Shown: positions 4,940-64,000, numbered from the stretch's first letter. The stretch is 64,000 bases of DNA from Candidatus Dormibacteria bacterium (GCA_049518775.1 JBEKRL010000004.1:4968-68967); one strand, 5' to 3'. Translations and numbers: made by a program. Notes: generated by a model from the sequence alone, not told the origin.

Positions 4940-6898
4940 ATGGCGGCGATGGTGCGGGATCAGGGCGAGGTGGCCGTGTGGCCGGACGCGCAGGAGGTCA
5001 CGCCGCGCCGGACGGCCAGAAATCGGAGGACCGATTCTCCGACCGCGGCCGAGCTCGCCATCCGAGACCTGCTTCGGCCCAATGCCATCCGCCTCATGGT
5101 TCAACCTTTCAACCGCCTTTGCGACAAGGCCATTCTGGGTTATGAGATCCGCTGGCGAATCCCCCGGTTGGACGTCCTGCCGTCGCGCGAGGAGATCTGG
5201 GCCGCGGCCGAGGCTGCCGGCCTGCTGAGCACTCTGGACGACACCCTGCTCCGGGCCGAGCTGGAGGTGGCCGCTCGGCTGAGCCCCGGGGCGGTGACGT
5301 TGGAGCTGCATCCCTGGCGCTGGCATCGGCGGGGGGTCGTCGGGCTGCTCTCGAGGGAGGTCAAAGCGAGCGGGGTCGACCCCGGTGGGATCGTCTGGCA
5401 ACTGTTGGAGCAGGAGCACCTTGAGAGCGGCGTCATCTACGACATGTCCGCCCAGCTCCACGGGCGAGGCTTCAAGGTGGCGCTGGCCGGGCTGGGAGCC
5501 GTCCGGTCCCGGCTCTCGGACGCCGGCAAGGTCGAGCCTGACGTCATCCAGATGGCCCCGATCATGATCGAAGGAGTGGACCAGGACCGGGGTCAGCGTG
5601 CCATGGTCTCGGCTCTGGTCGGGTTCGCGCGCCAGATGGGCGCCTATCTTATTGCGGACGGGATCGCCGAGAAAGCGGAGCTCTCCACCCTCATCGACCT
5701 TGGGGTCCAGTTCGGCGATGGGCCCCTCCTCGGGGCCCCCTTCGACGCTGCTGGCGAGCTCCAGCCGCCCGGGCGGCTGCCGCTGCTCTCGCTTGACTCC
5801 CCGCCTCCCGTCGACGGTGACAAGCCGTCCAGTCAGGGGGCCGTCGCCAACTCCCGCCGCCGGGTCCGGAGCGTCCCCCTCCATTTCCAGCAGCTCGGAG
5901 TCGCCGAGGTCCTGACCCAGGCCGGCAGGGCCTTTCAGGCCGAGCACGATCTCCGCGCGATCGTTGAGCTGGCGGCCGACTATCTGGACCAGCTGGTCCC
6001 CTCGGACGGGATCGCCGTATATGAGGCGGACTGGGACTCGGGTCAGTTCCGGCCGATCCTGGCCCGCTCTTCCAAGGACCCCACCTATGCGGTGGGGGTG
6101 ATGGCTCACCCCTTCAGGTTCGGCATGGGACTCACCGGTTGGGCCTTCGACCAGGGGACGCCTCAGCGAGTCAATGACGCCGAGGCCCATCCGGCCGCAG
6201 GCCACCTCCCCGGCACCGCCCCGCAGGACGAGTCGATGCTGCTGCTGCCGCTCACCTCCGGCGACCACCGGCTGGGGATGCTGGACGTGGTCCGCTTCCG
6301 CCGCGACGCCTTCGTCGCCAACGAACTCATCGTGGGCGGACTGGTTGCCTACATGGCAGCCGCCGCCTGGTACAACGCCCAGCTCTATGTCGAGCAGGTG
6401 CAGCACGCCATCACCGATCCCCTCACCGGGTTGTTCAACACCAGGTGGCTCCAGGACGCCGACGGCCGGGAGTTGGCCATGGCCGAGCGCAACGGTACCG
6501 AGATGGCCCTCCTGATGATCGACCTCGATGACTTCAAGCAGATCAACGACAGCTGCGGCCACGCCGTCGGCGACGATATCCTGCACAGCGTCGGCCGGGT
6601 CCTCCAGGGGGCGATCAGGACCGACGATGCCGCGGTCCGCTGCGGGGGAGACGAGTTCGTCCTGGTCCTCCGGGGTTCCAGCCGGGAGGGGTCTCGGCGG
6701 ATCGCCCGCGAAGTCCGCAAGGGGCTTGCCGAGATCGCGCTTCCGGCTGCGAGCACCCTGCCTGTCGTCACCGCCTCGATAGGGATTGCCTATTTCCCCA
6801 GGCACGGTCGCACCATCGGCCAGCTGCTGGGGGTGGCGGATGGCGCCATGTACAGCGCCAAGCGCAGGGGCAAGGACCGAGTCCTGGCGGCCCGCTAG
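4940..6898 (+). CDS. c-di-GMP signalling protein, degenerate EAL - GAF - GGDEF (diguanylate cyclase with I-site)
   Basis: C-terminal GGDEF domain with intact RCGGDEF and RTDD I-site 5 aa upstream; central GAF-like region; N-terminal EAL-like domain with EAL->EIR and loss of DDFGTG/EGVE/KID motifs; ATG 4940 chosen (ORF open from TTG 4880); long antisense ORF 4655-6805 rejected. Confidence 0.8.
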   Translation: MAAMVRDQGEVAVWPDAQEVTPRRTARNRRTDSPTAAELAIRDLLRPNAIRLMVQPFNRLCDKAILGYEIRWRIPRLDVLPSREEIWAAAEAAGLLSTLDDTLLRAELEVAARLSPGAVTLELHPWRWHRRGVVGLLSREVKASGVDPGGIVWQLLEQEHLESGVIYDMSAQLHGRGFKVALAGLGAVRSRLSDAGKVEPDVIQMAPIMIEGVDQDRGQRAMVSALVGFARQMGAYLIADGIAEKAELSTLIDLGVQFGDGPLLGAPFDAAGELQPPGRLPLLSLDSPPPVDGDKPSSQGAVANSRRRVRSVPLHFQQLGVAEVLTQAGRAFQAEHDLRAIVELAADYLDQLVPSDGIAVYEADWDSGQFRPILARSSKDPTYAVGVMAHPFRFGMGLTGWAFDQGTPQRVNDAEAHPAAGHLPGTAPQDESMLLLPLTSGDHRLGMLDVVRFRRDAFVANELIVGGLVAYMAAAAWYNAQLYVEQVQHAITDPLTGLFNTRWLQDADGRELAMAERNGTEMALLMIDLDDFKQINDSCGHAVGDDILHSVGRVLQGAIRTDDAAVRCGGDEFVLVLRGSSREGSRRIAREVRKGLAEIALPAASTLPVVTASIGIAYFPRHGRTIGQLLGVADGAMYSAKRRGKDRVLAAR

Positions 6899-52213: not shown

Positions 52214-54687
52214 GCACCCGCACGCCACCACGCAGCGCCCCGCCGGGCGCGCCGGGCGTCGCCCCGCCCCTGCGCGTGGTCGGCAGGGGGCTGCCCCGGG
52301 TCGACGGGCGGGCCCTGGTCACGGGCAGCCCCGTGTACACGGCGGACATGGACGTGCCGGACATGCTCCACGGCAAGATCCTGCACTCGCCGCTGGCCCA
52401 TGCCCGGATCGTGGCCATCGACACCGGCGCCGCTCGGGCCCTGCCGGGGGTTCGCGCGGTGCTGACCCACTTAGACGTGCCCGCGATCCTTCACGCCACC
52501 GCCGGCCAACCCTTCCCGGAGCTATCGCCCTACGACACCCGACTGCTCGATCCCCACCTGCGTTATGTCGGGGACTGGGTCGCCCTGGTGGCGGCCGAGA
52601 GCGAGGCCATCGCGGAGGCGGCGCTGGCGCTGATCAAGGTGACCTACCAGGAGCTGCCGGCAGTGTTCGACCCCGTCGAGGCGATGCGCGACGGCGCCCC
52701 TAAGCTCCACGAGCCCGACGTCGCCCACCCGCTCTTCGAGCGGTCGCCCGGGCCCACCTATGACGCGCGGCACAACATCGCCGGCCACGAGGAGATCTGG
52801 CGCGGGGCCGACTTCGCGACCACCATGGCCGCGGCCGACCACATCGTCACCGGGACCTACCACACTCCGCGGATCGCCCACTGCGCGCTGGAGCCCCACG
52901 TGGCGATCGCCCACGCCGACGGATACGACCGGCTCAACGTTTGGAGCAGCACCCAGGTCCCATACCACACCCGCCGTCAGCTGGCCCGGGTCCTCCAGTG
53001 GCCGGTCTCGCGCATCCGCGTGATCAAGCTGCGCGTGGGCGGCGGCTTCGGCGGTAAGCAGGAGATGGTGCTCGAGCCCGCGGTCGCGGTCCTGGCGATG
53101 GCCACCGGACGACCGGTGCGGATCCTCTACAGTCGCCAGGAGGAGTTCGCCGCCAGCCGGGTCCGGCACCCGATGACCATTCACATGCGCTCTGGGGTGG
53201 CCAGCGACGGGACCCTTCTCGCCCTGGAGATGCGCGTCATCTCTGACACCGGGGCCTACGGGGGGCACGGTCTGACGGTGGCCCAAGGGGCTGGTCACAA
53301 GACGCTCTGTCTCTACCGGGCCCGCGCCTATCACTTCGTGGCCGACGCGGTCTACACCAACTCGCCGGTGTCGGGAGCGATGCGCGGCTACGGGGCACCC
53401 CAGGGGTACTTCGCACTGGAGTCGCACATGGACGAGATCGCGGCCAGGCTGGGGCTGGACCCCCTCGACTTCCGCCGCCGCAACCATGTCCGCCGGGGCG
53501 ACTACGACCCCATCAATCTGGACTCCTCCTCAGGAGTGCCGCGGTCACAGCGGCACTTTCGCTCCTGTGCCCTGCCGGAGTGCCTCACCCGGGGCGCCGA
53601 GGCGATCGGCTGGGACCTGCCGTTCGATCGTGGTCAGGGGGTCGTGCGGCGCGGCCGTGGCCTGGCCACCGCCATGCAGGGCAGCGGCGTCGCCGGTTCA
53701 GAGCTGGGCGGGGCCAGCATCAAGATGAACGAGGACGGCTCCTTCAACGTGATGACCGGGGCCACCGACATCGGCCAGGGCAGTGACACCGTCCTGGCTC
53801 AGATCGCGGCCGAGACCCTCGGCGTCGGGCTGGACAAGATCATCATGCACTCGTCCGACACTGACATCGACGTGTTCGACTACGGCTCCTACGCCTCCTC
53901 CACCACCTTCGTCACCGGCACCGGGGTGCGGCTGGCCGCCGAGGCGGTCCGGGACCAGATCCTGGCGGTGGCGGCCCGGATGACGGGGTGCCCCGCCGCC
54001 GACCTGCACCTGGAGGATGGGCGTGTCCACGCCGCCGGTGGGCCCCTCGGGCTCACCCTGGCCGAGGTGGCGCTAGAGACCCTCTACGGTTCCCGGCGAC
54101 AGCAGATCATGGCCAGCGGGCACGCCTCCTGCCATGACTCGCCTCCACCCTTCCACGCCCAGTTCGTGGAGATTGCCGTCGACTGCGAGACGGGCCAGAT
54201 CCGGGTTGAACGCTCCGTCAATGCCATCGACATGGGTCGGGCCATCAACCCCCGCCTTGCCAGCGGCCAGGTGGAGGGGGCGATCGCGATGGGGCTGGGA
54301 TTCGCGCTCAGCGAGGAGCTGCTGATGGACGAGCGCGGGCAGGTCCGCAATCCCGCCTTCGTCGATTACAAGGTGCTCTCCTGCCTCGACATGCCCGCCA
54401 TGACCACCATCCTGGTGGACGACCCCGAGCCCACCGGTCCCTTCGGGGCGAAGTCCTGCGGCGAGGTCCCGATCAACACCCCGGCTCCGGCCGTGGCCAA
54501 CGCCCTCTTTGATGCGCTGGGCATCCGGGTGCGCAGTCTGCCGATCACCGCCGAGAAGGTGCTGGCCGCCCTCCGGGCCAGGGACTCTGCGCCGACCGGG
54601 CCGGTCGCTCACCCCGGTGGCCCCTTCGCTCCGCAGGACGGCGCGGGGCACCAGTCGGTGCCCCGGTGCTCCGGCCCGGGATCGTGA
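52210..54687 (+). CDS. xanthine dehydrogenase family molybdopterin-binding large subunit
   Basis: a/b hammerhead + MoCo-binding domains, 825 aa; ATGA overlap with FeS subunit. Confidence 0.85.
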   Translation: MSTRTPPRSAPPGAPGVAPPLRVVGRGLPRVDGRALVTGSPVYTADMDVPDMLHGKILHSPLAHARIVAIDTGAARALPGVRAVLTHLDVPAILHATAGQPFPELSPYDTRLLDPHLRYVGDWVALVAAESEAIAEAALALIKVTYQELPAVFDPVEAMRDGAPKLHEPDVAHPLFERSPGPTYDARHNIAGHEEIWRGADFATTMAAADHIVTGTYHTPRIAHCALEPHVAIAHADGYDRLNVWSSTQVPYHTRRQLARVLQWPVSRIRVIKLRVGGGFGGKQEMVLEPAVAVLAMATGRPVRILYSRQEEFAASRVRHPMTIHMRSGVASDGTLLALEMRVISDTGAYGGHGLTVAQGAGHKTLCLYRARAYHFVADAVYTNSPVSGAMRGYGAPQGYFALESHMDEIAARLGLDPLDFRRRNHVRRGDYDPINLDSSSGVPRSQRHFRSCALPECLTRGAEAIGWDLPFDRGQGVVRRGRGLATAMQGSGVAGSELGGASIKMNEDGSFNVMTGATDIGQGSDTVLAQIAAETLGVGLDKIIMHSSDTDIDVFDYGSYASSTTFVTGTGVRLAAEAVRDQILAVAARMTGCPAADLHLEDGRVHAAGGPLGLTLAEVALETLYGSRRQQIMASGHASCHDSPPPFHAQFVEIAVDCETGQIRVERSVNAIDMGRAINPRLASGQVEGAIAMGLGFALSEELLMDERGQVRNPAFVDYKVLSCLDMPAMTTILVDDPEPTGPFGAKSCGEVPINTPAPAVANALFDALGIRVRSLPITAEKVLAALRARDSAPTGPVAHPGGPFAPQDGAGHQSVPRCSGPGS

Positions 54688-55877
54688 CCAGCCCGCACCC
54701 GGATGGTGCTGCCGTCTTCGCCGTCCTCGGTGAGTTGCTGGCCCGGGGGGAGGCGGTGGCCCTGGCCACTATCGTCGGGCAGCGCGGCTCGACGCCGCGC
54801 GAGATCGGAACCAAGATGTTGGTCCGCTCGAACGGGGCCATCGTCGGCACCGTGGGCGGTGGAGCGGCCGAGGCGGAGGTCTGCCGGCAGGCGGCGGTGG
54901 TGCTGGAGAGCGGTCGGTCCCAGCTCCTCACCCTCGACTTCAACGGCACCCTGGAGCAGCCGGGGCTGGGCATCTGCGGGGGCAGCGTCGACGTGTTCAT
55001 CGAGTCCTGGAGCAGCTGTCCCCCCCAGGCCGCGCCCGGCCCAGAGGCGGTCGGTGGGGCCGCGGAGGTTGTCCGCGCCGCAGTGGGCGCCCTGGAGGAG
55101 GGCCGTCCCGTCACCCTGGTCACGGTGATTGACGCCGAGGGCCGCTGGGCGGCCGCTGCCGGCGCGCGGATCCTTTTCGGCGACCGCGGGCCAGTCAGTG
55201 CGGTCACCGCCCCGGAGGAGCTGATGGCCCAGGCGGCGCTGGCCACAGTCGGCCCGCGGCCCGGGCCGACGGCAGGGACCTGGGTCCGGACGCTTACCGC
55301 GGGGGACGGCGTCGCGCAGGCCCGGGTCCTGGTCGAGCCGCTGCGCCCGCCGGAGGCGCTCCTCATCATGGGTGGCGGGCACATCGCCCAGCCCTTGGCC
55401 GCGATCGCCACCATCTGCGGCCTCGCCGTGACCGTTGTCGACGACCGCCCGGGCCTTGCCACCCCGGCCCGCTTCCCAACGGCTCGAGCCGTGACGGCCG
55501 ATGCGGCCAGCTTCCTGGCCCAGCGCCTCCCCGGGGCCGAGACCCATGTGGTGTTCGTGAGCCGGGGGCCAGCGCAGGACATGGCCGGGCTGCGGGCTCT
55601 CCTGAACTCCGCCGCCGGCGGTTACGTGGGGCTGATCGGCAGTGAACGCCGGGTCTGGTCCGTGCTCACGGCGCTCCGCGCCGAGGGCGTGCCAGCGGAA
55701 CAGTTGGCCCGGGTCCACGGGCCGGTGGGGCTCGCCCTCGGCGGCACGTCACCGGCGGAGATCGCCCTGGAGATCATGGCCGAGATGCTGGGGTGGCGGC
55801 ACCAGAGCACCGGTCAGGAGCGGTCGGCCCGCCTGCGCCGGCGCCTCCTCACTCCGGTGGCGCCGGCCTCAGGCTGA
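54684..55877 (+). CDS. XdhC/CoxI family molybdenum-cofactor insertion accessory protein
   Basis: XdhC N-domain (AVLGELLARGEAVALATIVG..GSTPR) + Rossmann C-domain (LLIMGGGHIAQPLA); GTGA overlap with large subunit. Confidence 0.75.
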   Translation: MTSPHPDGAAVFAVLGELLARGEAVALATIVGQRGSTPREIGTKMLVRSNGAIVGTVGGGAAEAEVCRQAAVVLESGRSQLLTLDFNGTLEQPGLGICGGSVDVFIESWSSCPPQAAPGPEAVGGAAEVVRAAVGALEEGRPVTLVTVIDAEGRWAAAAGARILFGDRGPVSAVTAPEELMAQAALATVGPRPGPTAGTWVRTLTAGDGVAQARVLVEPLRPPEALLIMGGGHIAQPLAAIATICGLAVTVVDDRPGLATPARFPTARAVTADAASFLAQRLPGAETHVVFVSRGPAQDMAGLRALLNSAAGGYVGLIGSERRVWSVLTALRAEGVPAEQLARVHGPVGLALGGTSPAEIALEIMAEMLGWRHQSTGQERSARLRRRLLTPVAPASG

Positions 55878-56358
55878 TCACCTGCGATTCGGGACGGACG
55901 ACCACCGCCGGGCAGTGGGCGTGGGTCGCGCAATGCTGGGAGACCGACCCCAGCAGGAGGCCGACAACCCCTCCGTGCCCCCGCGAGCCGACCACCCGCC
56001 GCGAGGCCCGTTCGCTGGCATCGGTCAGGAGCTGGGCGACTGAGCCCTCGACCGTCCTGCCCTCGATCTGAACCGCGGGGTGCTCCTGGGAAGCCGCGGC
56101 GATTTCCGTCGCCAGGACCTTCTGGTGGTAGTCGGTCAGCTCTTCCACGTCGGCGGGGTCGAAGAGGAAGCCGGGAGCTGCCGTGCCCAGGGTAGGGATG
56201 AGGTAGGAGCTGATCGCCAGGACCCGCTGGCCGCGGACCTCCGCCTCTCGGCCCGCCCACTCCAGGGCCTTGCGCGAGGCCTCTGAGCCGTCGACTCCGA
56301 CCACGATCGGAAGGGGCTGGCTCTCCGTTTCCGAGATGGTGTTCGGAGTTCTGGTCAT
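55849..56358 (-). CDS. universal stress protein (UspA family)
   Basis: IVVGVDGSEASRKALEWA ... GSRGHGGVVGLLLGSVSQHC motifs. Confidence 0.75.
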   Translation of the reverse strand: MTRTPNTISETESQPLPIVVGVDGSEASRKALEWAGREAEVRGQRVLAISSYLIPTLGTAAPGFLFDPADVEELTDYHQKVLATEIAAASQEHPAVQIEGRTVEGSVAQLLTDASERASRRVVGSRGHGGVVGLLLGSVSQHCATHAHCPAVVVRPESQVISLRPAPPE

Positions 56359-56543
56359 CGGACCCGGTGGCTTTATGCGGCGGTCGGGACGATGGCTGAG
56401 ACGTCTTGTGCAACCGCCTCCACCATCAGCCTCAGCTGGCGGCGCGGCAAAGATGTGACCCTGGCGCGCACCTCAGTTGGGGGGCGCTCCCTAGCGGCAG
56501 CGCCGATCCCGGCCGGTCTGGAAGGGGAGAGGGCGGCGCTACC

Positions 56544-58274
56544 ATGGGCGGCCAGGACATGAGCGCAGGTACGGGAAGGGCGGACGCGAATCCGCAATCA
56601 CCGCCCGCCGAGGACTTGGAGGCCGCCCTGATCGAGGCCGGGGTGCTGCTGGCCTCGGAGCTCACCCTCCCCGCAGTCCTGCGCCGGCTGGTTGAGATAG
56701 CGGTCCGGATCACCCACGCTCGCTACGGGGCCATGGGGGTGACCGGTCCCCACGGTGAACTCGTGGAGCTCATCACCGTCGGGCTCACCGACCAGGAGCG
56801 AGCCGCCATCGGTCCCGCCCCCCGGGGGCTGGGGATCCTGGGAGCTCTGCTCCACGATCCCCACCCGCTGCGGCTGAGCCGGCTTCAGGACGACCCCCGC
56901 TCGGTGGGCTTTCCTCCCCATCACCCCCCCATGACCTCCTTTCTGGGGGCCCCAGTCCGCGCCCGGGGCCAACTGGTGGGCAACCTGTACCTGACCGATA
57001 AGGAGGGCGGTCGGCCCTTCGACGGCGCCGACGAGGGCGCGGTGGCCACCCTGGCGACCCAGGCCGCAGTCGCCATCGCCAACGCCCAGACCTACCGGGA
57101 GCTGCGTCAGCGAGAGCGCTGGTTGGGGGCCCTCCACGAGATCACCGCGGCGCTGCTGGCCGGTGAGCCGCAGCAGACTCTGATGAACTCGATCGTGCGC
57201 AGCGCTCGGGAGGTGAGCGGAGCCGACCTGGCCGCGATCGCGCTGGCGGTGGGCGGGGGGTCGAGCGAGCTGCGCGTCGCCGCCGCCGACGGTGCCGGGG
57301 CGGACCGCATCCTGGGCACCCCCGCGATGGCGTCGCGTACCACCTTCCACAGCGTGCTGGGCACGGGGCGTCCGTTGATCGTCCGGCCCTCGCCGGGCGA
57401 CCGCTTCACCCAGTCTCTGCAGGGCGCCGGCATCCCGGTCGGGGTCCTGATGGTCGTCCCCCTGCTCATCCGCGAGCGCGCCAGCGGGGCGATCGTCCTG
57501 ATCCGCTCCGCCCCGGATGCCAACTTCAACTCCGAGGACCTCAGCCTGCTCGAGAGCTTCGCCAGCCAGGCGACCCTGGCGCTCGACTACGCCGCCGTCC
57601 AGGTCCAGTCCCGGCGCCTGGCGGTGATCGAGGAGCGCCATCGAATCGCCCGTGACCTCCACGACGAGCCGGTCCAAGCTCTGATCTACCTGGCCCGGCG
57701 GCTGGAGGCGATGGCACTGGAGGCGGCCGCCACCGGGACCGCCGCCACCCAGTTGGAGGACACCATGCAGCTGGCCGTGGCGGTGGCTGACGGCCTGCGG
57801 CAGCTCACCGAGGGGCTGCGGTCCGAGATTCTCGAGTACGAGGGTCTGCCGGCCGCCCTGGGTGACTTGGCCGAGCGCTTCAGCGCCCGGGTGGGGATCC
57901 CGGCCGAGGTGTCGATTCGAGATGAGCTCCAGCGCTCGACGCCGGAGGTGGAGCGCGGCCTGCTCCGGGTGGCTCAGGAGGCGCTCAGCAACGTCGAGCG
58001 GCACGCCCAGGCCCGGCGGGTCCGGCTGGACCTGGCCGTGCGAGCCGGCCAGCTCAGTCTCCGGGTGGCTGACGACGGGGTCGGGTTCCTCGTCTCCGGA
58101 GAAGGCGCGGTCAGGCCGGGACTGGGGACGATCGGCATGCGCGAGCGGATGGAGCTGATGGGCGGCCGGCTCCTGATCTGGTCCCGACCACGCCGCGGAA
58201 CCCTGGTGGTGGCCAGGCTCCCCAACGACGTGTACCAGCGGGCCGGTGGCAACCACGCCGGTGGCAATAGGTGA
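56544..58274 (+). CDS. sensor histidine kinase, tandem GAF - HisKA_3 - HATPase_c (DosS/DevS-like)
   Basis: two GAF-like domains, H-box ERHRIARDLHDEPVQAL, HATPase motifs (RVADDGVGF, GLGTIGMRERMELMGGRL); ATG 56544. Confidence 0.8.
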   Translation: MGGQDMSAGTGRADANPQSPPAEDLEAALIEAGVLLASELTLPAVLRRLVEIAVRITHARYGAMGVTGPHGELVELITVGLTDQERAAIGPAPRGLGILGALLHDPHPLRLSRLQDDPRSVGFPPHHPPMTSFLGAPVRARGQLVGNLYLTDKEGGRPFDGADEGAVATLATQAAVAIANAQTYRELRQRERWLGALHEITAALLAGEPQQTLMNSIVRSAREVSGADLAAIALAVGGGSSELRVAAADGAGADRILGTPAMASRTTFHSVLGTGRPLIVRPSPGDRFTQSLQGAGIPVGVLMVVPLLIRERASGAIVLIRSAPDANFNSEDLSLLESFASQATLALDYAAVQVQSRRLAVIEERHRIARDLHDEPVQALIYLARRLEAMALEAAATGTAATQLEDTMQLAVAVADGLRQLTEGLRSEILEYEGLPAALGDLAERFSARVGIPAEVSIRDELQRSTPEVERGLLRVAQEALSNVERHAQARRVRLDLAVRAGQLSLRVADDGVGFLVSGEGAVRPGLGTIGMRERMELMGGRLLIWSRPRRGTLVVARLPNDVYQRAGGNHAGGNR

Positions 58275-58981
58275 TTTCTCGGAGCCCCGGGCCGGACGAA
58301 GCGGGTAGCCTCGACCCCGTGACGGGTGCGGGCGTGACCACCATCGTGCTGGCGGAGGACCACGCCCTGGTGCGTGAGGGCACCAGGCAGATCCTCTCGG
58401 CACAGAGCGACCTCAGGGTCGTGGGGGAGGCCGCCAGGGGCGACGAGGCGGTGCGGGTGGTCCTGGAACTGCGTCCGGACGTGGTCCTGATGGACATGCG
58501 CATGCCGGGGATGAACGGGATCGAGGCGACGCGCCAGATTCTGGCCCGGGCACCGGCCACCAAGGTCGTCATCGTCAGCGCCCATGAGGACGCCGACTAC
58601 GTTCGCGAGGCGCTGGCCGTGGGAGCGGCCGGCTACATCCTCAAGACGGCGCCGGCCCGGGAGCTGGTGGAGGGCATCCGTGCGGTGGCCGTGGGTTCGC
58701 TGGTGCTCTCGCCCAGCCTCTCCCGGCGTCTGGCCCAGTCCCGCGACGAGCCCGCCAGGGCCAGCGACCGGCTGAGCGCCCGGGAGCTGGCGGTGCTTCG
58801 TGAGATCGCCCTGGGTCACGGGAACAAGGAGATCGCCCGCGACCTGGGCATCAGCCTGCGCACGGTCGAGGGCCATCTCCACAACATCTTCGAGAAGTTG
58901 CGGGTCACCTCCAGGACCGAGGCGGTGGTGTACGCGGCCAACCGCGGGATCGTCTCCATCGAGTCGACCGAGGCCAGATGA
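58271..58981 (+). CDS. response regulator, NarL/FixJ (LuxR-type HTH) family (DosR/DevR-like)
   Basis: REC domain (IVLAEDHALVREG...DVVLMDMRMPGMNG) + LuxR HTH (LSARELAVLREIALGHGNKEIARDLGISLRTVEGH); GTGA overlap with kinase. Confidence 0.8.
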   Translation: MISRSPGPDEAGSLDPVTGAGVTTIVLAEDHALVREGTRQILSAQSDLRVVGEAARGDEAVRVVLELRPDVVLMDMRMPGMNGIEATRQILARAPATKVVIVSAHEDADYVREALAVGAAGYILKTAPARELVEGIRAVAVGSLVLSPSLSRRLAQSRDEPARASDRLSARELAVLREIALGHGNKEIARDLGISLRTVEGHLHNIFEKLRVTSRTEAVVYAANRGIVSIESTEAR

Positions 58982-59054
58982 GCCTCCCGTCGGCTCGTTC
59001 CGGCAGGTACCGGACGGAGTTGGTGCGACTCGTGGCCTAGGGGACGGCGGCCGA

Positions 59055-59625
59055 GTGGCTGCGATCTTTCGGGCGATCGAAGCCGAGCGGAGTCAGCTGG
59101 CCGAGCTGCTCAACGACGAGCCGGTCCAGACCCTGGCCCACATCTCCCGGGTCCTGCAAAGCCTGGATGACATCCCGGACGCAGCGGCCCCGGCGGCTGC
59201 GGCCTTCGATCCTCGACGACCTGCGGTTGGGGGCCGCACTCCGCCAGCTGGCCGGGGATTTCGCCGTGGCCTCGACACTCACCGTCCGGGCCGACCCGGG
59301 GGCTGTGACGGGGACCGGGCTCGCCGAGGCGGATCTCGCGCTGTTCCGGGTGGCTCAGGAGTCCCTGCGGAACACCGAGGTCCATGCTGCGGCGACCGAG
59401 GTCGACTTGCGGCTGCGCCGGCGGGGCGCCCGGGTGAGCCTCACTGTGGGTGACAACGGCATCGGTCTGGCGGCGTGTTCCCAGATGGCTGGCTCCGGCA
59501 CTGGCTTCCCGGACATGTGGGAGCGGATGCGGTCGGTCGGGGGCAACCTGACGGTGCGCTCGAGGCCGAGCGTGGGGACGGTGGTGCTGGCCACGGTGCC
59601 AAGCTCGGCTCCGCCCCGCCCTTAG
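59055..59625 (+). pseudogene. sensorless HisKA_3/HATPase_c histidine kinase remnant with frameshift (~59190-59220) and H-box His->Asn
   Basis: frame A encodes ERSQLAELLNDEPVQTLAHI (H-box with N instead of H); frame B (ORF 59167-59625) encodes LRPSILDDLRLGAALRQL...GDNGIGL...GSGTGFPDMWERMRSVGGNL (intact HATPase_c); the two segments are in different frames and closer together than in intact homologues. Confidence 0.35.
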
Positions 59626-59815
59626 GGATCGGGTCGGGTCGGCTCAGCGCCGGCGGCCGAAGCCTTCGAGGGCTGGCCCCGGCCTGGCTAGGCTCTGGCG
59701 CCGATGGGTGCGAACGCTCGGCGGTCCCGAGGAGTTCAGGGCCCCTCCCTGCGCTCACCGCCCCCGGGCGTGGTCTCGGTGGCGGAAGGCCGCCGGCGGG
59801 ACTGCCGTCGAGCGC

Positions 59816-62524
59816 CTAGCGGACCCGCTTGGCGCCCACCAGGGCAGGCAGCTGCGCCTGGGTCACCCGGACGCGAACGTCGACCGCGCGAGACCCACTG
59901 GCGCCGGCGATGACCGGGTTGGCTTCGATCTCCGCGATGGCGCTGTGGGCCTCGGCCATGGCCGCCAGCCTGACGATGACGTCGCAGAGTGCCTTGAGGT
60001 CCACCTTGGCGGCACCCCGGAACCCGTCGAGCAGGGGGAATGTGCTCAGCTTCCGGAGCATCTCCTCGGCTTCGCCAGGCCCGATCGGCGCCAGCCGGAC
60101 GGTCATGTCGCGGACCAGCTCAACTGCCGTCCCCCCGGCCGCGACCACGACCACGGTCCCGTAGGCGGGGTCGTTGGTCGCCCCGACCAGGACCTCGACT
60201 CCGGTCGGCGCTTGCTCCTGGAGCAGGAATCGCGTCACCGGAGTCGCGGTGCCCGCGAGCCGCGCCTGCATCTGCCGGGCGGCCAGCTCCACCTCAGGCC
60301 CTGCCTCCAGCCCGACCACCACAGCCCCCAGCTCACTCTTGTGCAGGATGCCCGGGCCGACTCCCTTCAGCACCACCTTGGCGCCCAGGTCCAGCGAGGC
60401 TTGAGCCGCCTGCTCGGGGGTCTCAACCTCGGCCGAGCGCAGAACCGGAATTCCGTAGGCCCGCATGATCGAGTCGGTCTCGGCACTGTCGAGCCACGCG
60501 CGCTTCTCCAGTAGACAGTGAGCCACCGTGGTCGCCACCGCCACCGGATCGACCCCGGCCGGGACCGCGGGCTCGCTCCGGGGACGCTTGCGCCACTCCG
60601 CCAGCCGGCAGGTGCCGGCCAGGGCCCGGACGGCGTTCTCGGGGAGTAGGAAAGTGGGGATGCTCACATGGTCCGACTTCACATGCCCCGTGATCCCCGA
60701 GTTGGCCATGAACACCCCGATGATCGGGATCGGCTGCTTGAACCTGGCCACTGCGTCCGCCAGAGCCTGGGCCACGTCCTCGGCCCGGGTCAACATGGGA
60801 GGGATGAAGATGACCACGATGGCGTCCACGTTCTCGTCGGCGGCCACCATGTCGATCACCGCGCCGTAGTCCTCGGCGGAGGCCGAGGCGATCATGTCAA
60901 TCGGGTTGCGGACGGAGGCGTGGGGGGAGGAGAGTCGCGCGGCCAGCTGGGTCTGGGTGGCAGCGGCCAGCTCGGCGACCTGGAGGCCATTCGACTCGCA
61001 GGCATCGGCGCAGAGGATCCCGGGACCGCCCGCGTTGGTGATGATGGCGACACGGTTCCCCTGGGGAAGCGGCTGGGTCGACAGCAGCGCCATGAGGTCG
61101 AACATTTCGCCCAGGCTGTGGGCTCGGAGCGCTCCGGTCTTCTCGAAGAGGGCGTCGACGGCGGCATCGGAGGCCGACACCAGGGCGGCGGTGTGGGAGG
61201 CCGCGGCTCGTTGCGCAGCGACGCCGATCGCGCTCTTGACCACCACGATCGGCTTGGTCCGGGAGACCCGCTCGGCGATCTGGGCGAACTTGCGGGCGTT
61301 GCCGAACGATTCCAGGTAGAGCGCGATCACCTCGGTGCGCGGGTCCCCATCCCAGAAGCTCAGCAGGTCGTTTCCACTGATGTCGGCCTTGTTGCCCACC
61401 GAGATGAAGGCGCTGAGCCCGAGGCCGAGCCGGCGAGTGGCGTCTATCACTGCCAGCCCCAGGGCACCGCTCTGGGAGAGGAACCCGATCTGGCCCCGAT
61501 CTGGTGGCACCGGCGCGAAGGTCGCGTTGAGGCCGACCTCTGGGCTGGTGTTGATGATGCCCATGCAATTCGGCCCCACGATGCGCATCCCTGAAGAGGA
61601 GCAGATCTCGAGGAGCTCATCCTGGAGGCCCCGCCCCCGCTCACTCTCCTCGGCAAACCCGGCGGAGATCACCACCAGGGATCGGACCTCCTTGGCGGCG
61701 CATTCTCGTGCCACGGCGATCACCGCCGACACCGGGACCGTCACCACGGCCAGATCCACAGGGCCCTCGATGTCGGTGACGTGCCGGTAGGAGCGGACCG
61801 ATTGAATGAACTCGGCCTCGGGGTGGACGGGATAGACCGGGCCCTGGAATTCGCCCTCCAGAAGGTTGTGGAAGATCGTGCCGCCGATCGTGCGGCGCTG
61901 ACGCCCGGCGCCGATCACCGCCACCGATTTGGGGTTGAGGAGCATCCGGACAGCCGAGGCCGAGGCCTGCTCCTCGCGCTCCTCGAAGCGGTGCATGGCC
62001 TCGGGGGTCAGCTCGGTGGGGAACTCCAGTCTCACCAAGCCCGGCTGTGAGTAGGTGTGAATCGCGAATCCACTGTGCGCGAACACGTCCAGCATGGCCG
62101 CGTTCTCCGGCTGGACGGCGGCTTCGAATACCTCGACCCCCATCGAGCAGGCGACCTGGGCCAACTGGCCCAGCAGTAGGGATCCGATTCCCTTGCCCTG
62201 AAGGGAGTCGGCCACCGTGAAGGCGGCCTCCGCGCGGACGCCAGCGGTGCGGATGAAGATGCCGTGCCCGACCACCCGGGGGGGCTGTCCCTGGATCGCG
62301 ACCAGGCCCACCGAGTTGCGTCCGTCAACCCTGCCCAGCATCTGGGCCGCCTCAGGCAGGGCCACTCCGGCGGCGAGGAAACGGAACGCGAGCGACCTCG
62401 GCGACAGCGTGTGCAGGAACTCCAGGACCAGCTCGACGTCGTCGGGTTGCTGCTCGCGGAGCCTGAGCACGGACCCGTCCTTGAGGACCACGTCGCTGTC
62501 CGGGATCAGGGAATTCTCCACCAT
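59816..62524 (-). CDS. GNAT acetyltransferase fused to ADP-forming acyl-CoA synthetase (CoA-binding + ATP-grasp) domains: actinobacterial Pat-like protein lysine acetyltransferase
   Basis: N-terminal GNAT (QGKGIGSLLLGQLAQ), then succinyl-CoA-synthetase-like CoA-binding (VAVIGAGRQ...GPNCMGI) and ATP-grasp domains; ATG 62524. Confidence 0.8.
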   Translation of the reverse strand: MVENSLIPDSDVVLKDGSVLRLREQQPDDVELVLEFLHTLSPRSLAFRFLAAGVALPEAAQMLGRVDGRNSVGLVAIQGQPPRVVGHGIFIRTAGVRAEAAFTVADSLQGKGIGSLLLGQLAQVACSMGVEVFEAAVQPENAAMLDVFAHSGFAIHTYSQPGLVRLEFPTELTPEAMHRFEEREEQASASAVRMLLNPKSVAVIGAGRQRRTIGGTIFHNLLEGEFQGPVYPVHPEAEFIQSVRSYRHVTDIEGPVDLAVVTVPVSAVIAVARECAAKEVRSLVVISAGFAEESERGRGLQDELLEICSSSGMRIVGPNCMGIINTSPEVGLNATFAPVPPDRGQIGFLSQSGALGLAVIDATRRLGLGLSAFISVGNKADISGNDLLSFWDGDPRTEVIALYLESFGNARKFAQIAERVSRTKPIVVVKSAIGVAAQRAAASHTAALVSASDAAVDALFEKTGALRAHSLGEMFDLMALLSTQPLPQGNRVAIITNAGGPGILCADACESNGLQVAELAAATQTQLAARLSSPHASVRNPIDMIASASAEDYGAVIDMVAADENVDAIVVIFIPPMLTRAEDVAQALADAVARFKQPIPIIGVFMANSGITGHVKSDHVSIPTFLLPENAVRALAGTCRLAEWRKRPRSEPAVPAGVDPVAVATTVAHCLLEKRAWLDSAETDSIMRAYGIPVLRSAEVETPEQAAQASLDLGAKVVLKGVGPGILHKSELGAVVVGLEAGPEVELAARQMQARLAGTATPVTRFLLQEQAPTGVEVLVGATNDPAYGTVVVVAAGGTAVELVRDMTVRLAPIGPGEAEEMLRKLSTFPLLDGFRGAAKVDLKALCDVIVRLAAMAEAHSAIAEIEANPVIAGASGSRAVDVRVRVTQAQLPALVGAKRVR

Positions 62525-63080
62525 GCTCAACTGTGACCCGGTGCCGGACTCACCGACACGGGTGCTTTCCTCCGGCCGGGGCGCGTGACTACCGCCAGCG
62601 CTGCGAACGCTACCACACCTCCCGCCGGCGTCCGGCCATCAGCATCGAGCGGCCACGGCCATCGGAGCCTCCCTCCCGGACGTGGAGGTCACGACCCCGC
62701 CGGCCGGCCTTCTCCCGTGCGTCCCGAGGCCCGTGAGTGAAAGCTCGGCCCCCCGGTAGGTGCAAGCGACGTGGCGGGCGAGTGCTCGCAGCACCAACCT
62801 TGGACCATGGCGACGGGTCTCAGGCATCAACACGGGATGCGGCCTCCGGCTGCGGAAGCTGGTATCAGCGCCGGGGCGCAGGACGGCTCGCCCCGGCGAG
62901 GTAAGCGTGGTGGCCAGGCGCCGCAGGGACCGGAGGCCTGTCTCTGGCCGGGGAGGTGGGCCGTCCGATGACTGGCTGGAGAAACCAGGGTCACCCGGGA
63001 GGGTGCATACCGCTGGTGGAGCTGGGCCGGCCCGCCCCGGGAGGTTCCCGTGATTGCGGGGAATCTCGGGAGGCATCGCT

Positions 63081-63557
63081 GTGAGCGAGGGCAACCGAGG
63101 CAAGATCGTGGTCGGGGTGGACGGGTCGGAAGGGGGCCGCCTGGCCCTGCGGTGGGCGATCGGTGAGGCGGGCCTACGCCACGCCGAGGTGGTGGTGGTG
63201 CATGCGATCCAGCCTTGTCTCACGGCGACCGGGCTTCCCACCTATCCGGCGGCGGAGGTGCGATTCCCCTTCGATGTCGAGGACGCCGCCCGACAGCTCA
63301 TCAACCGGGAGCTGGGAGTGGTGCGGCCGGAGGCTGACGGGGTCGCGGTCAGTCGGACGGTGGTCGATAGTGCCCCGGCGCGGGGACTTCTGGAGCAGAG
63401 CCAGGGCGCCCTGATGCTGGTGGTCGGCTTGCGCGGGATGGGAGGTTTCCCCGGCCTGGCGATGGGCTCGGTGGCCCATCAGTGCGTCCAGCATGCGGGC
63501 TGTCCTGTGGTGGTGGTGGGACCGGAGAGCGCTCCCGCGCGGGCCGCCGCGGGCTGA
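63081..63557 (+). CDS. universal stress protein (UspA family)
   Basis: KIVVGVDGSEGGRLALRWA ... GLRGMGGFPGLAMGSVAHQC; GTG 63081 with GGGAGG RBS 7 nt upstream. Confidence 0.7.
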   Translation: MSEGNRGKIVVGVDGSEGGRLALRWAIGEAGLRHAEVVVVHAIQPCLTATGLPTYPAAEVRFPFDVEDAARQLINRELGVVRPEADGVAVSRTVVDSAPARGLLEQSQGALMLVVGLRGMGGFPGLAMGSVAHQCVQHAGCPVVVVGPESAPARAAAG

Positions 63558-63747
63558 GTCCACCGCGGGTTCCCGTGGGGGCGTTGAGCGCGTAGCCGGG
63601 GACTGGCGGTGGCTGAGCCCGGCGAGGTCGATGCGGCGCCCCCACTCCGGTCGGCCGGTCGATGCGTTGGTCCCATGGCGGCCGAGAACGCTCGGGTCCG
63701 TCACCCCGGGGAGACGCGGCCGGGGGCCGTGCTTTCCGCTTCGGTCC

Positions 63748-64000
63748 TCAGCCCTCCTGCAGTACGGCGGCGAAGACATTGGCCTGCTCGCCGGGATAGG
63801 CCCGGATCCGGGGCAGCTCCCAGGGCTGGGTGGCGCTCTCATGCCAGGGGGCCCCGGGCAGCCAGTCGTCCTCGAGCCCGCCTACGTATCCAAGCGGTCC
63901 GAGCTCGGAGAAGAGCTCGGTCTCGCCCGGGCCCACCTGGGTCCCCGACTTATACGGCCACAGGCCGCTGTAAGCGATGAACTGGATCGGCGCGTTGGTG
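63748..64000 (-). CDS. hypothetical protein, C-terminal fragment (gene continues beyond right window edge)
   Basis: frame ending at TGA 63748 stays open to position 64000 (…TNAPIQFIAYSGLWPYKSGTQVGPGETELFSELGPLGYVGGLEDDWLPG…); no family recognised. Confidence 0.3.
   Translation of the reverse strand, partial: TNAPIQFIAYSGLWPYKSGTQVGPGETELFSELGPLGYVGGLEDDWLPGAPWHESATQPWELPRIRAYPGEQANVFAAVLQEG

Follow-up and report, generated by a model that had tools for sequence, protein, structure and literature searches.

A Probable Recent Pseudogene in a DosS/DosT-Like Operon of a Candidatus Dormibacteria Bacterium and the Predicted Histidine-Less HisKA_3 Family to Which It Belongs

The stretch of DNA analyzed here, referred to below as the window, comprises 64,000 nt of a Candidatus Dormibacteria bacterium (GCA_049518775.1 JBEKRL010000004.1:4968-68967). 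The region studied within it (56544-59625) encodes a DosS/DosT-like sensor histidine kinase, a NarL-type response regulator and the remains of a third gene, which we call pHK. According to our analysis, and with a probability that we put at roughly 0.8, this third gene is a recently inactivated cistron of the DosS/DosT-like operon, the intact product of which would act on the regulator. The remnant itself (58978-59625) is very probably a recent, species-specific pseudogene of a family whose members naturally lack the phospho-accepting histidine. The features on which the argument rests are listed below, with the dimerization and histidine phosphotransfer domain abbreviated as DHp, the catalytic and ATP-binding domain as CA, and the open reading frame as ORF.

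56544-58274, plus strand: DosS/DosT-like sensor histidine kinase (Pfam GAF/GAF_2 in two stretches, GAF_3, HisKA_3, HATPase_c)
58271-58981, plus strand: NarL/LuxR-type response regulator (Pfam Response_reg 4e-30, GerE 4e-20)
58978-59625, plus strand: whole remnant of the probable pHK pseudogene (tblastn with the intact homologue P0002)
58978-58985, plus strand: original pHK ATG (ATGA overlap) and 1-nt deletion in codon 3 (DNA alignment with the intact locus L012)
58986-59190, plus strand: frame-0 segment with the variable N-terminus and DHp helix alpha-1, Asn at the His site (alignments; codon-position GC)
59190-59204, plus strand: junction of the ~71-nt deletion, frame 0 to frame 1 (tblastn pieces, gapped protein alignment)
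59167-59625, plus strand: 152-aa ORF with the alpha-2 tail (RRLRPSILDD) and a complete HATPase_c (CA) domain, including N, G1 and G2 boxes (Pfam HATPase_c, 36.5 bits)

Structure of the pHK Remnant

Downstream of the regulator gene, frame 0 reads '...VAAIFRAIEAERSQLAELLNDEPVQTLAHISRVLQSLDDIPDAAAP...' and frame 1 contains the 152-aa ORF; codon-position GC supports frame 0 followed by frame 1 as the formerly coding frames. In BLASTP comparisons, the frame-0 residues 'AIEAERSQLAELLNDEPVQTLAHISRVLQSL...' align with residues 360-401 of the upstream kinase, around its H-box, where the Asn codon AAC 59112-59114 lies exactly opposite the kinase His and the downstream D-E-P-V-Q is kept. The 152-aa ORF is 37% identical to residues 425-566 of the same kinase (E 2e-20), and, relative to the kinase, some 23-24 residues are missing between the halves. 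With the intact homologue P0002 as the tblastn query, two stretches are matched: residues 4-76 by the frame-0 sequence 58986-59204, at 64% identity, and residues 96-250 by the frame-1 sequence 59191-59661, at 62%. Residues 77-95 have no counterpart. These alignments bear out the first-pass annotation, made from the window alone, in its description of a sensor-less HisKA_3/HATPase_c unit downstream of the two-component pair, with its halves in different frames, a shortened linker and Asn in place of the phospho-accepting His. That annotation had recognized a single frame break, whereas the window copy carries two fixed deletions, one of 1 nt, which had escaped notice, and one of about 71 nt.

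The DNA alignment with L012 places the 1-nt deletion in codon 3 (ATGAGCC-TCCCG in the window, ATGAGCCGACCCG in L012). The conserved ATG 58978, which overlaps the TGA of the regulator gene and is preceded by GAGG, is still present in the window, and past the deletion the original frame gives MSLPSARSGRYRTELVRLVA and ends after 20 codons at the stop TAG 59038-59040. The size of the second deletion (24 codons minus 1 nt) follows from the spacing between the tblastn pieces, which is 71 nt shorter than in P0002. Alignment to kinases and homologues, the sizing proposed at the outset, likewise yields ~71 nt, and in the gapped protein alignment 24 columns are missing, corresponding to residues ~67-90 of the intact homologue P0003, that is, to nearly all of DHp helix alpha-2. 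Because the two deletions sum to 72 nt, the tail segment is back in the original frame. With the frame broken and alpha-2 removed by the ~71-nt deletion, the four-helix bundle of an intact DHp domain cannot form in the window copy. The frame-0 fragment has no match to HisKA_3 (PF07730) at E <= 0.1 and lacks the phospho-accepting His; the Gln at +5 and the Asp at +1 of the DxxxQ motif are kept.

An origin of the remnant by tandem partial duplication of the upstream kinase was also considered and ruled out, as its halves are 37-41% identical to the kinase versus 48-60% identical to orthologues elsewhere.

Fixation of the Lesions

Both deletions were found, without any other indel, in every one of 16 contigs assembled independently from JGI, ENA and Logan samples (16/16). 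Eleven of these contigs are 99.8-100% identical to window 58982-59815 in ungapped alignment, and the five further ones (L060-L064) have no indel either. The exact 152-aa product and the exact regulator are present on many independently assembled contigs from the same three sources. Over 11 kb, scattered single-nucleotide polymorphisms (SNPs) in differing combinations distinguish the eleven contigs from the window and from one another, which therefore represent distinct strains. Relative to L012 and about 24 other intact loci, the frame disruption is thus a fixed one, as expected of a pseudogene.

The possibility that the break is an assembly or sequencing artefact and that the real gene is intact had to be considered, given that high-GC metagenome assemblies may hold indel errors; apart from this prior, nothing speaks for it. 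The 16 contigs come from separate samples with differing SNP haplotypes and show zero indels across the region, and one of the lesions is a 71-nt deletion, unlike a homopolymer-type error. The check for an assembly error at ~59200 that the first-pass annotation had called for can be considered done: since 16 independent contigs carry both lesions and no indel restoring the frame was seen, such an error is excluded, and we regard an intact gene behind the break as having a negligible probability.

The Family of Intact Homologues

For the search of homologues, the two halves of the window copy were conceptually rejoined and compared with 5.8 billion protein clusters. The search returned the cluster of the 152-aa product itself, followed by 24 intact single-ORF proteins of 200-293 aa, with 48-60% identity and 93-100% query coverage. 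Wherever their source was named, it was Candidatus Dormibacterota, a phylum named for dormancy with, to our knowledge, few, if any, cultured members. The His column is occupied by Asn in 24 of 24, within 'LLNDEPVQ(A/T)LAH' or 'RINDDPVQTLAH', and V, Q and H are invariant in the same helix. An exhaustive profile search of 1.84 billion cluster representatives, in which the score dropped sharply after ~10 clusters, added P0051-53 and P0057 (Asn) and P0058 (Asp, 'QLDAGPVQTLSH'). Over 29 representatives, the His column thus contains N in 28 and D in one, and the Gln at +5 is present in all (29/29); the +1 acidic position of DxxxQ is D in ~20 of the 29 and E, Q, N, T or A in the others. The next-best matches below the family are canonical histidine kinases with 'ELHDE.GQ', and the nearest outgroups all keep the His. 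A sensor-less relative of 239 aa, P0067, also still has the His ('RIHADPLQTLSH') and may resemble the state that preceded the His-to-Asn change. The first-pass annotation had counted this substitution as part of the decay; the distribution of residues in the family shows instead that Asn is the ancestral, conserved state.

HATPase_c was significant in 24 of 24 members. The intact relatives align to positions 1-67 of the 68 in the HisKA_3 model (PF07730), yet stay below its gathering score of 24 bits: a full-length alignment below the threshold was obtained in 20 of 24 members (E <= 1; best 1.2e-4), with 19.8 bits for P0003. In the AlphaFold2 (AF2) model of P0003 (pLDDT 74), helix alpha-1 (21-61) is followed by a loop, helix alpha-2 (69-96) and an alpha/beta CA domain. 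DesKC structures ranked first in a Foldseek search with this model (E 5e-11), with the C-terminal part of DivL at rank 22, and the CA domains of VraS, DesK and DevS were the best matches in a profile search of PDB sequences. Judging from this model and the searches, the intact family is predicted to consist of sensor-less DHp-CA proteins of the DesK fold that lack the His and are restricted to Dormibacterota.

Within the family, alpha-1 (N, P-V-Q, L-A-H) and the end of alpha-2 bear most of the constraint. Six of the 29 representatives (P0015, P0022, P0024, P0052, P0053 and P0057) are without the N-box Asn, the G1 'DxGxG' box or both. Because these six retain N..PVQ, the constraint appears to lie on DHp alpha-1 and not on ATP binding, and they point to ATP binding being dispensable for the function of the family.

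The DosS/DosT-Like Kinase, Its Regulator and the Operon

The kinase (56544-58274) has the architecture GAF-GAF-HisKA_3-HATPase_c with the H-box DLHDEPVQAL. Its GAF-A domain is ~55% identical to the GAF-A domains of DosT/DevS, with E-values of 1e-39 to 2e-37 (1.3e-39 for DosT 2vzw and ~1e-38 to 2e-38 for DevS 2y8h/2w3d). The proximal-His motif for heme, FPPHHPPM, is kept, 'GFPPHHPPM' being aligned to 'GFPLHHPPM' and 'GFPPYHPPM'. By architecture, GAF-A homology and proximal His, the protein therefore qualifies as a DosS/DosT (DevS)-type heme-GAF kinase, for which heme binding and gas sensing are predicted. Both the domain composition of the pair, confirmed by Pfam, and the DosS-like identity of the kinase agree with what had been read from the window earlier.

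The regulator (58271-58981) has an alternative start at 58319 and ends with TGA 58979-58981. Its best PDB matches are VraR (7e-44), NarL (7e-36) and DesR, and DevR scores 2e-26, so that it is assigned, by these scores, to the NarL family and not specifically to a DevR-like type. It is 80-86% identical to orthologues in at least 16 Dormibacterota loci. In NCBIfam, no model reached its cutoff for any of the three proteins (pHK, kinase and regulator); MctS/MctR and UhpB came closest, as partial matches.

The order universal stress protein gene (USP, minus strand), GAF-GAF kinase, regulator and pHK was found in L012, L015 and 15 GTDB species representatives (L016-L030), and in all of these loci the pHK halves lie in one frame, ~84-90 nt apart. 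When the regulator was used as bait, so that sampling was unbiased toward the presence of pHK, intact-looking pHK genes were found in seven of seven further orthologous metagenome loci; the regulator-profile scan gave just these 7 orthologous loci, the other 73 being unrelated NarL-family regulators. The start of pHK overlaps the stop of the regulator gene (ATGA or GTGA, once TGATG) in 11 of the 13 loci scored. In L020, the kinase gene is inverted upstream, and in L015 and L018 a DUF308 gene (L015/L018:5418-5987) is inserted between kinase and regulator; the regulator-pHK pair stays contiguous in all three, with the ATGA/GTGA overlap kept.

All partner kinases carry 'DLHDEPVQALIYLARRLE', and the unusual D-E-P-V-Q-x-L is common to them and to the pHK helix. 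Against the pHK profile, the transmitter modules of these kinases reach 130-152 bits, compared with <=150 bits for the best database outgroups. The shared motif and the high transmitter scores suggest that pHK may have arisen by duplication of the transmitter of its partner or, alternatively, may have co-adapted to the same regulator.

Some side observations concern these loci. A second, independently decayed regulator-pHK locus was found in L031 (L031:5790-6640, JBAWFE010000018.1, MFD05722 bin17), where only a 37-aa remnant of the regulator is left and pHK has a frameshift near 6315. Because the same metagenome-assembled genome (MAG) contains the intact locus L028, loss of extra copies appears to recur. 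Typical Dormibacterota-type operons were also present in L017 and L024, from MAGs labelled 'Candidatus Acidiferrales bacterium' and 'Candidatus Micrarchaeaceae archaeon'; the contigs were probably mis-binned or the MAGs mislabelled.

The 152-aa ORF and Population Variation

The ORF 59167-59625 matches HATPase_c well above the cutoff (36.5 versus 26.4 bits) and contains the boxes RNTEVHA, DNGIG and GTGFPDM. By profile and by its N, G1 and G2 boxes it is a GHKL/HATPase_c domain, for which ATP binding is predicted. In public annotations, the ORF appears as 'ATP-binding protein' (NCBI MGA2872273.1, Candidatus Dormibacteria MAG) or as 'two-component system NarL family sensor kinase' (JGI), and neither marks it as a fragment of a pseudogene.

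Among strains, the ORF is polymorphic. The substitution G59398T (GAG to TAG, E78 to stop) leaves just 77 aa of it; this allele was seen in several samples, on at least 11 contigs, among them L060-L064, where TAG occurs with no indel. The 90% cluster of the 152-aa product includes members of 77 and 57 aa ending in '...HAAAT', and the contigs with these variants are internal and have the same spacing to the next gene. The other two SNPs are C59224G (R20G), at which the window has a derived Arg at the family-invariant Gly of 'LDDxGL', and C59510T (P115L), at which it has a derived Pro where the family has Leu. The ORF SNPs thus comprise no synonymous changes and three nonsynonymous or nonsense ones, two of the three altering family-conserved residues; compared with the 8:1 ratio of synonymous to nonsynonymous changes in the Pat-like gene downstream, the 0:3 ratio gives a Fisher p = 0.018, with small counts. 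No Shine-Dalgarno-like motif was found upstream of ATG 59167. The segregating nonsense allele, the SNP ratio and the derived Arg at an invariant Gly show, within the limits of these small counts, that the remnant is under relaxed selection, and it is unlikely that the 152-aa ORF is retained as a stand-alone modulator.

Such retention belongs to the reading in the first-pass annotation, according to which a canonical sensor-less kinase decayed in place, with the His-to-Asn change as one step, and its HATPase_c ORF could have been kept as an ATP-binding modulator of the DosR-like system. The completeness of the CA domain with its three boxes is in keeping with this, as are the small number of substitutions at conserved sites in the remnant and the ability of isolated CA domains to fold alone (the VraS CA structure 4gt8 aligns from the same start point). 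These points are outweighed by the conservation of Asn in intact relatives, where it is ancestral, by the nonsense allele, the absence of synonymous changes among the ORF SNPs and of a Shine-Dalgarno-like motif, and by the fact that several intact members are themselves without ATP-binding motifs; we consider the explanation largely refuted and its probability low. Even less probable is that the split locus works as a two-piece or recoded gene, either through two programmed frameshifts or through reassembly of the alpha-1 and CA polypeptides. The deletions do sum to 72 nt, so that the first and last segments share a frame, and GTG 59055 could start a frame-0 peptide. However, this would take two independent recoding events, and neither a slippery site nor a stimulatory structure was identified, nor any Rfam match at the gathering threshold; alpha-2 would still be missing, so that the DHp hairpin of the AF2 model could not form, and, as the nonsense allele shows, the C-terminal piece is not needed.

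Possible Function of the Intact Product

In the mechanism that we propose, the ancestral product was a sensor-less protein of ~220-250 aa in which a DHp hairpin is joined to a CA domain, and its translation would be coupled to that of the regulator via the ATGA start/stop overlap. Because Asn replaces the phospho-accepting His, pHK cannot autophosphorylate or donate phosphate. It would dock on the regulator via DHp alpha-1, where N-D/E-x-P-V-Q closely resembles the H-D-E-P-V-Q of the partner kinase. There it would either dephosphorylate the phosphorylated regulator independently of any signal, by means of the invariant Gln located one turn below the site of the His, or else bind the regulator and so sequester it. 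In either mode, pHK would set the activation threshold and the reset rate of the hypoxia/redox response. In the window species, the phosphatase face (DxxxQ) of the kinase itself would then be the sole remaining enzymatic reset; a nonsense allele is now spreading in the leftover CA-domain ORF.

The Gln at +5, characteristic of HisKA_3 phosphatases (NarX/DesK DxxxQ), is present in the window copy and in 29/29 representatives. Published work (PMC5231405, PMC3510030) describes the Gln one turn after the His as the phosphatase residue of NarX and DesK, which positions the hydrolytic water. In the phosphatase state of DesK, His188 is buried, >18 Å from the reaction centre (PMC5231405, PMC3510030), and DesKC-H188V is locked in this state and binds DesR 2:2 (PMC5231405). 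In Mycobacterium tuberculosis, the phosphatase activity of DevS gates DevR and keeps it off in air (PMC12757749). By analogy, we tentatively infer that intact pHK may serve as a signal-independent phosphatase of the co-translated regulator or as a binder of its phosphorylated form, although we would not put this at even odds. Somewhat more speculative is a broader idea, namely that the DosS/DosT-like system of Dormibacterota has a third component, a kinase-dead paralogue of the transmitter held at a fixed ratio to the regulator, which would act as a constitutive phosphatase or buffer and separate the 'off' reaction from the sensor, and which the window species would have discarded recently.

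The main rival to a regulator-directed function is that pHK targets the kinase, forming a DHp heterodimer with the DosS/DosT-like kinase that blocks or modulates its autophosphorylation in the manner of RetS-GacS or ChrS-HrrS. Such interactions are documented for ChrS_CA-fs with HrrS (PMC9491836) and for RetS-GacS (PMC12757749), few canonical kinases match the family profile as well as the transmitters of the adjacent kinases do (130-152 bits), and kinase and pHK have the unusual D-E-P-V-Q-x-L helix in common. Nevertheless, pHK is translationally coupled and linked to the regulator gene, an arrangement that persists where the kinase gene is inverted or separated, and in DesK:DesR the invariant Gln at +5 points toward the regulator active site and is not known to take part in dimerisation. 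We therefore consider the heterodimer a serious but rather unlikely option, perhaps half as credible as action on the regulator; if it were true, loss of the gene in the window species would de-repress the kinase.

Several points weigh against our explanation as a whole, in which pHK was recently inactivated and its intact product acted on the regulator. Phosphatase chemistry is not guaranteed, because the +1 Asp is not invariant (~20/29). The N, G1 and G2 boxes persist in most members, a hint of a nucleotide-binding role that the phosphatase model does not need. As to the inactivation, the SNP counts are small, and substitutions in the remnant are not in excess: it breaks 4 of 59 conserved columns, compared with 0-11 in intact members. 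Relative-rate tests were mostly non-significant, and the sole p-values of 0.01-0.04 were obtained with outgroups that are possibly not true outgroups. In strains without the nonsense allele, some residual function of the fragment is formally conceivable. Because the substitution load against the family is not elevated, the inactivation must be recent relative to the divergence of the species, and older than the coalescence of the population. No relatives between 60% and 99% identity, which were sought for dating the lesions, were found among ~15 billion proteins, and the window species was not among the matches in the genome-contig search.

Neighboring Genes

The genes flanking the operon in the window are as follows.

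55849-56358, minus strand: USP1, universal stress protein gene (Pfam Usp, E 1.6e-23; equivalent position in relatives)
59816-62530, minus strand: convergent 904-aa GNAT and ADP-forming acyl-CoA-synthetase-like gene, Pat-type (Pfam, NCBIfam)
63054-63557, plus strand: USP2, second USP gene (ORF; Usp call in loci L001-L011)

The first-pass annotation had placed the two-component pair between two USP genes. This is correct for USP1, which directly adjoins the kinase gene in divergent orientation, but USP2 is not adjacent: it lies 3.4 kb downstream, on the far side of the 904-aa gene. In the product of the latter, an N-terminal GNAT domain is fused to CoA_binding, Succ_CoA_lig and ATP-grasp_5, which is the architecture of protein acetyltransferases of the Pat/YfiQ type. 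Fragments of Pat-like genes are found near the operon in L018, L022 and L071 as well. For DosR of M. tuberculosis, regulation by lysine acetylation has been reported (PMC5861037). The Pat-like gene is genomic context and stands outside the operon.

Strain SNPs in the XdhC-like gene (window 54666-55877, plus strand) were 10 nonsynonymous to 3 synonymous, compared with 5:13 in the flanking molybdopterin dehydrogenase and 1:8 in the Pat-like gene; this excess of amino-acid polymorphism lies partly in the overlap with the upstream gene. A promoter and terminator scan of 55700-60000 found nothing, no Rfam family reached the gathering threshold in 55500-64000, and no second pHK copy was found in the 64-kb window.

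Implications

For annotation purposes, the locus should be called a pseudogene, and the absent His should not be taken as a sign of decay. The feature in the window is in itself an ordinary recent pseudogene; more notable are the family that it exposed, a conserved, lineage-restricted set of natural His-less HisKA_3 proteins linked to a DosS/DosR-like pair, and the contrast offered by a natural knockout. If pHK is indeed a phosphatase of the regulator, the engineered, phosphatase-locked DesK-H188V would have an equivalent in nature, and the kinase and phosphatase functions of one sensor would be split between paralogues. If it forms a third component of the system, the window species would be a natural knockout, in which the dormancy-type response fires at a lower threshold or resets more slowly. 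The gene is dead in the window species, whereas it is intact in every other orthologous locus sampled, and this allows the regulons to be compared by metatranscriptomics.

Comparison With Known Systems

The pHK family has much in common with HisKA_3 transmitters (DesK, NarX/NarQ, VraS, LiaS, DevS/DosS), namely the DHp hairpin with a GHKL CA domain, the Gln one helical turn after the His site and the 'LRPxxLDDxGL' end of alpha-2. It differs from them in having Asn for His in 28/29 representatives, no sensor or transmembrane domain and a HisKA_3 score below the gathering threshold, and in the loss of ATP-binding boxes in about one fifth of its lineages; the window copy is further set apart by its missing alpha-2 and its frameshifts.

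Proteins that resemble kinases, have lost catalysis and modulate a two-component pathway are represented by DivL (Tyr for His), RocA, PsmA and the laboratory-evolved ChrS_CA-fs. Unlike pHK, they belong to other DHp subfamilies and have other architectures and partners, and none of them combines an Asn substitution and the lack of a sensor with translational coupling to a NarL-type regulator in a DosS/DosT-like operon. ChrS_CA-fs has lost its CA domain, whereas the window remnant has lost the DHp. Pseudo-histidine kinases and accessory phosphatases are thus already known, and it is the natural, sensor-less Asn-for-His family attached to a DosS/DosT-like pair that is undescribed: in the literature, we found no description of a natural sensor-less HisKA_3 family of this kind tied to DosS/DosT-like systems, nor of such a component in Dormibacterota.

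The DosS/DosT-DosR system of M. tuberculosis is similar to the window system in its kinase with two GAF domains and a HisKA_3 transmitter, its NarL-family regulator and its adjacent USP genes. The two differ in phylum (Actinomycetota versus Dormibacterota) and in their additional gene, which is a second full kinase (DosT) in M. tuberculosis and the His-less third gene here; moreover, DevR is not a nearer relative of the window regulator than VraR or NarL is.

In our opinion, engineered His-less, phosphatase-locked kinases such as DesKC-H188V are functionally the best analogues of the intact family. Like intact pHK, DesKC-H188V is a His-less HisKA_3 DHp-CA protein, and it binds its regulator and is phosphatase-competent (PMC5231405). 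It is, however, a laboratory mutant of a bifunctional sensor, whereas the substitution in pHK, known from sequence, is natural and conserved and resides in a separate, sensor-less gene.

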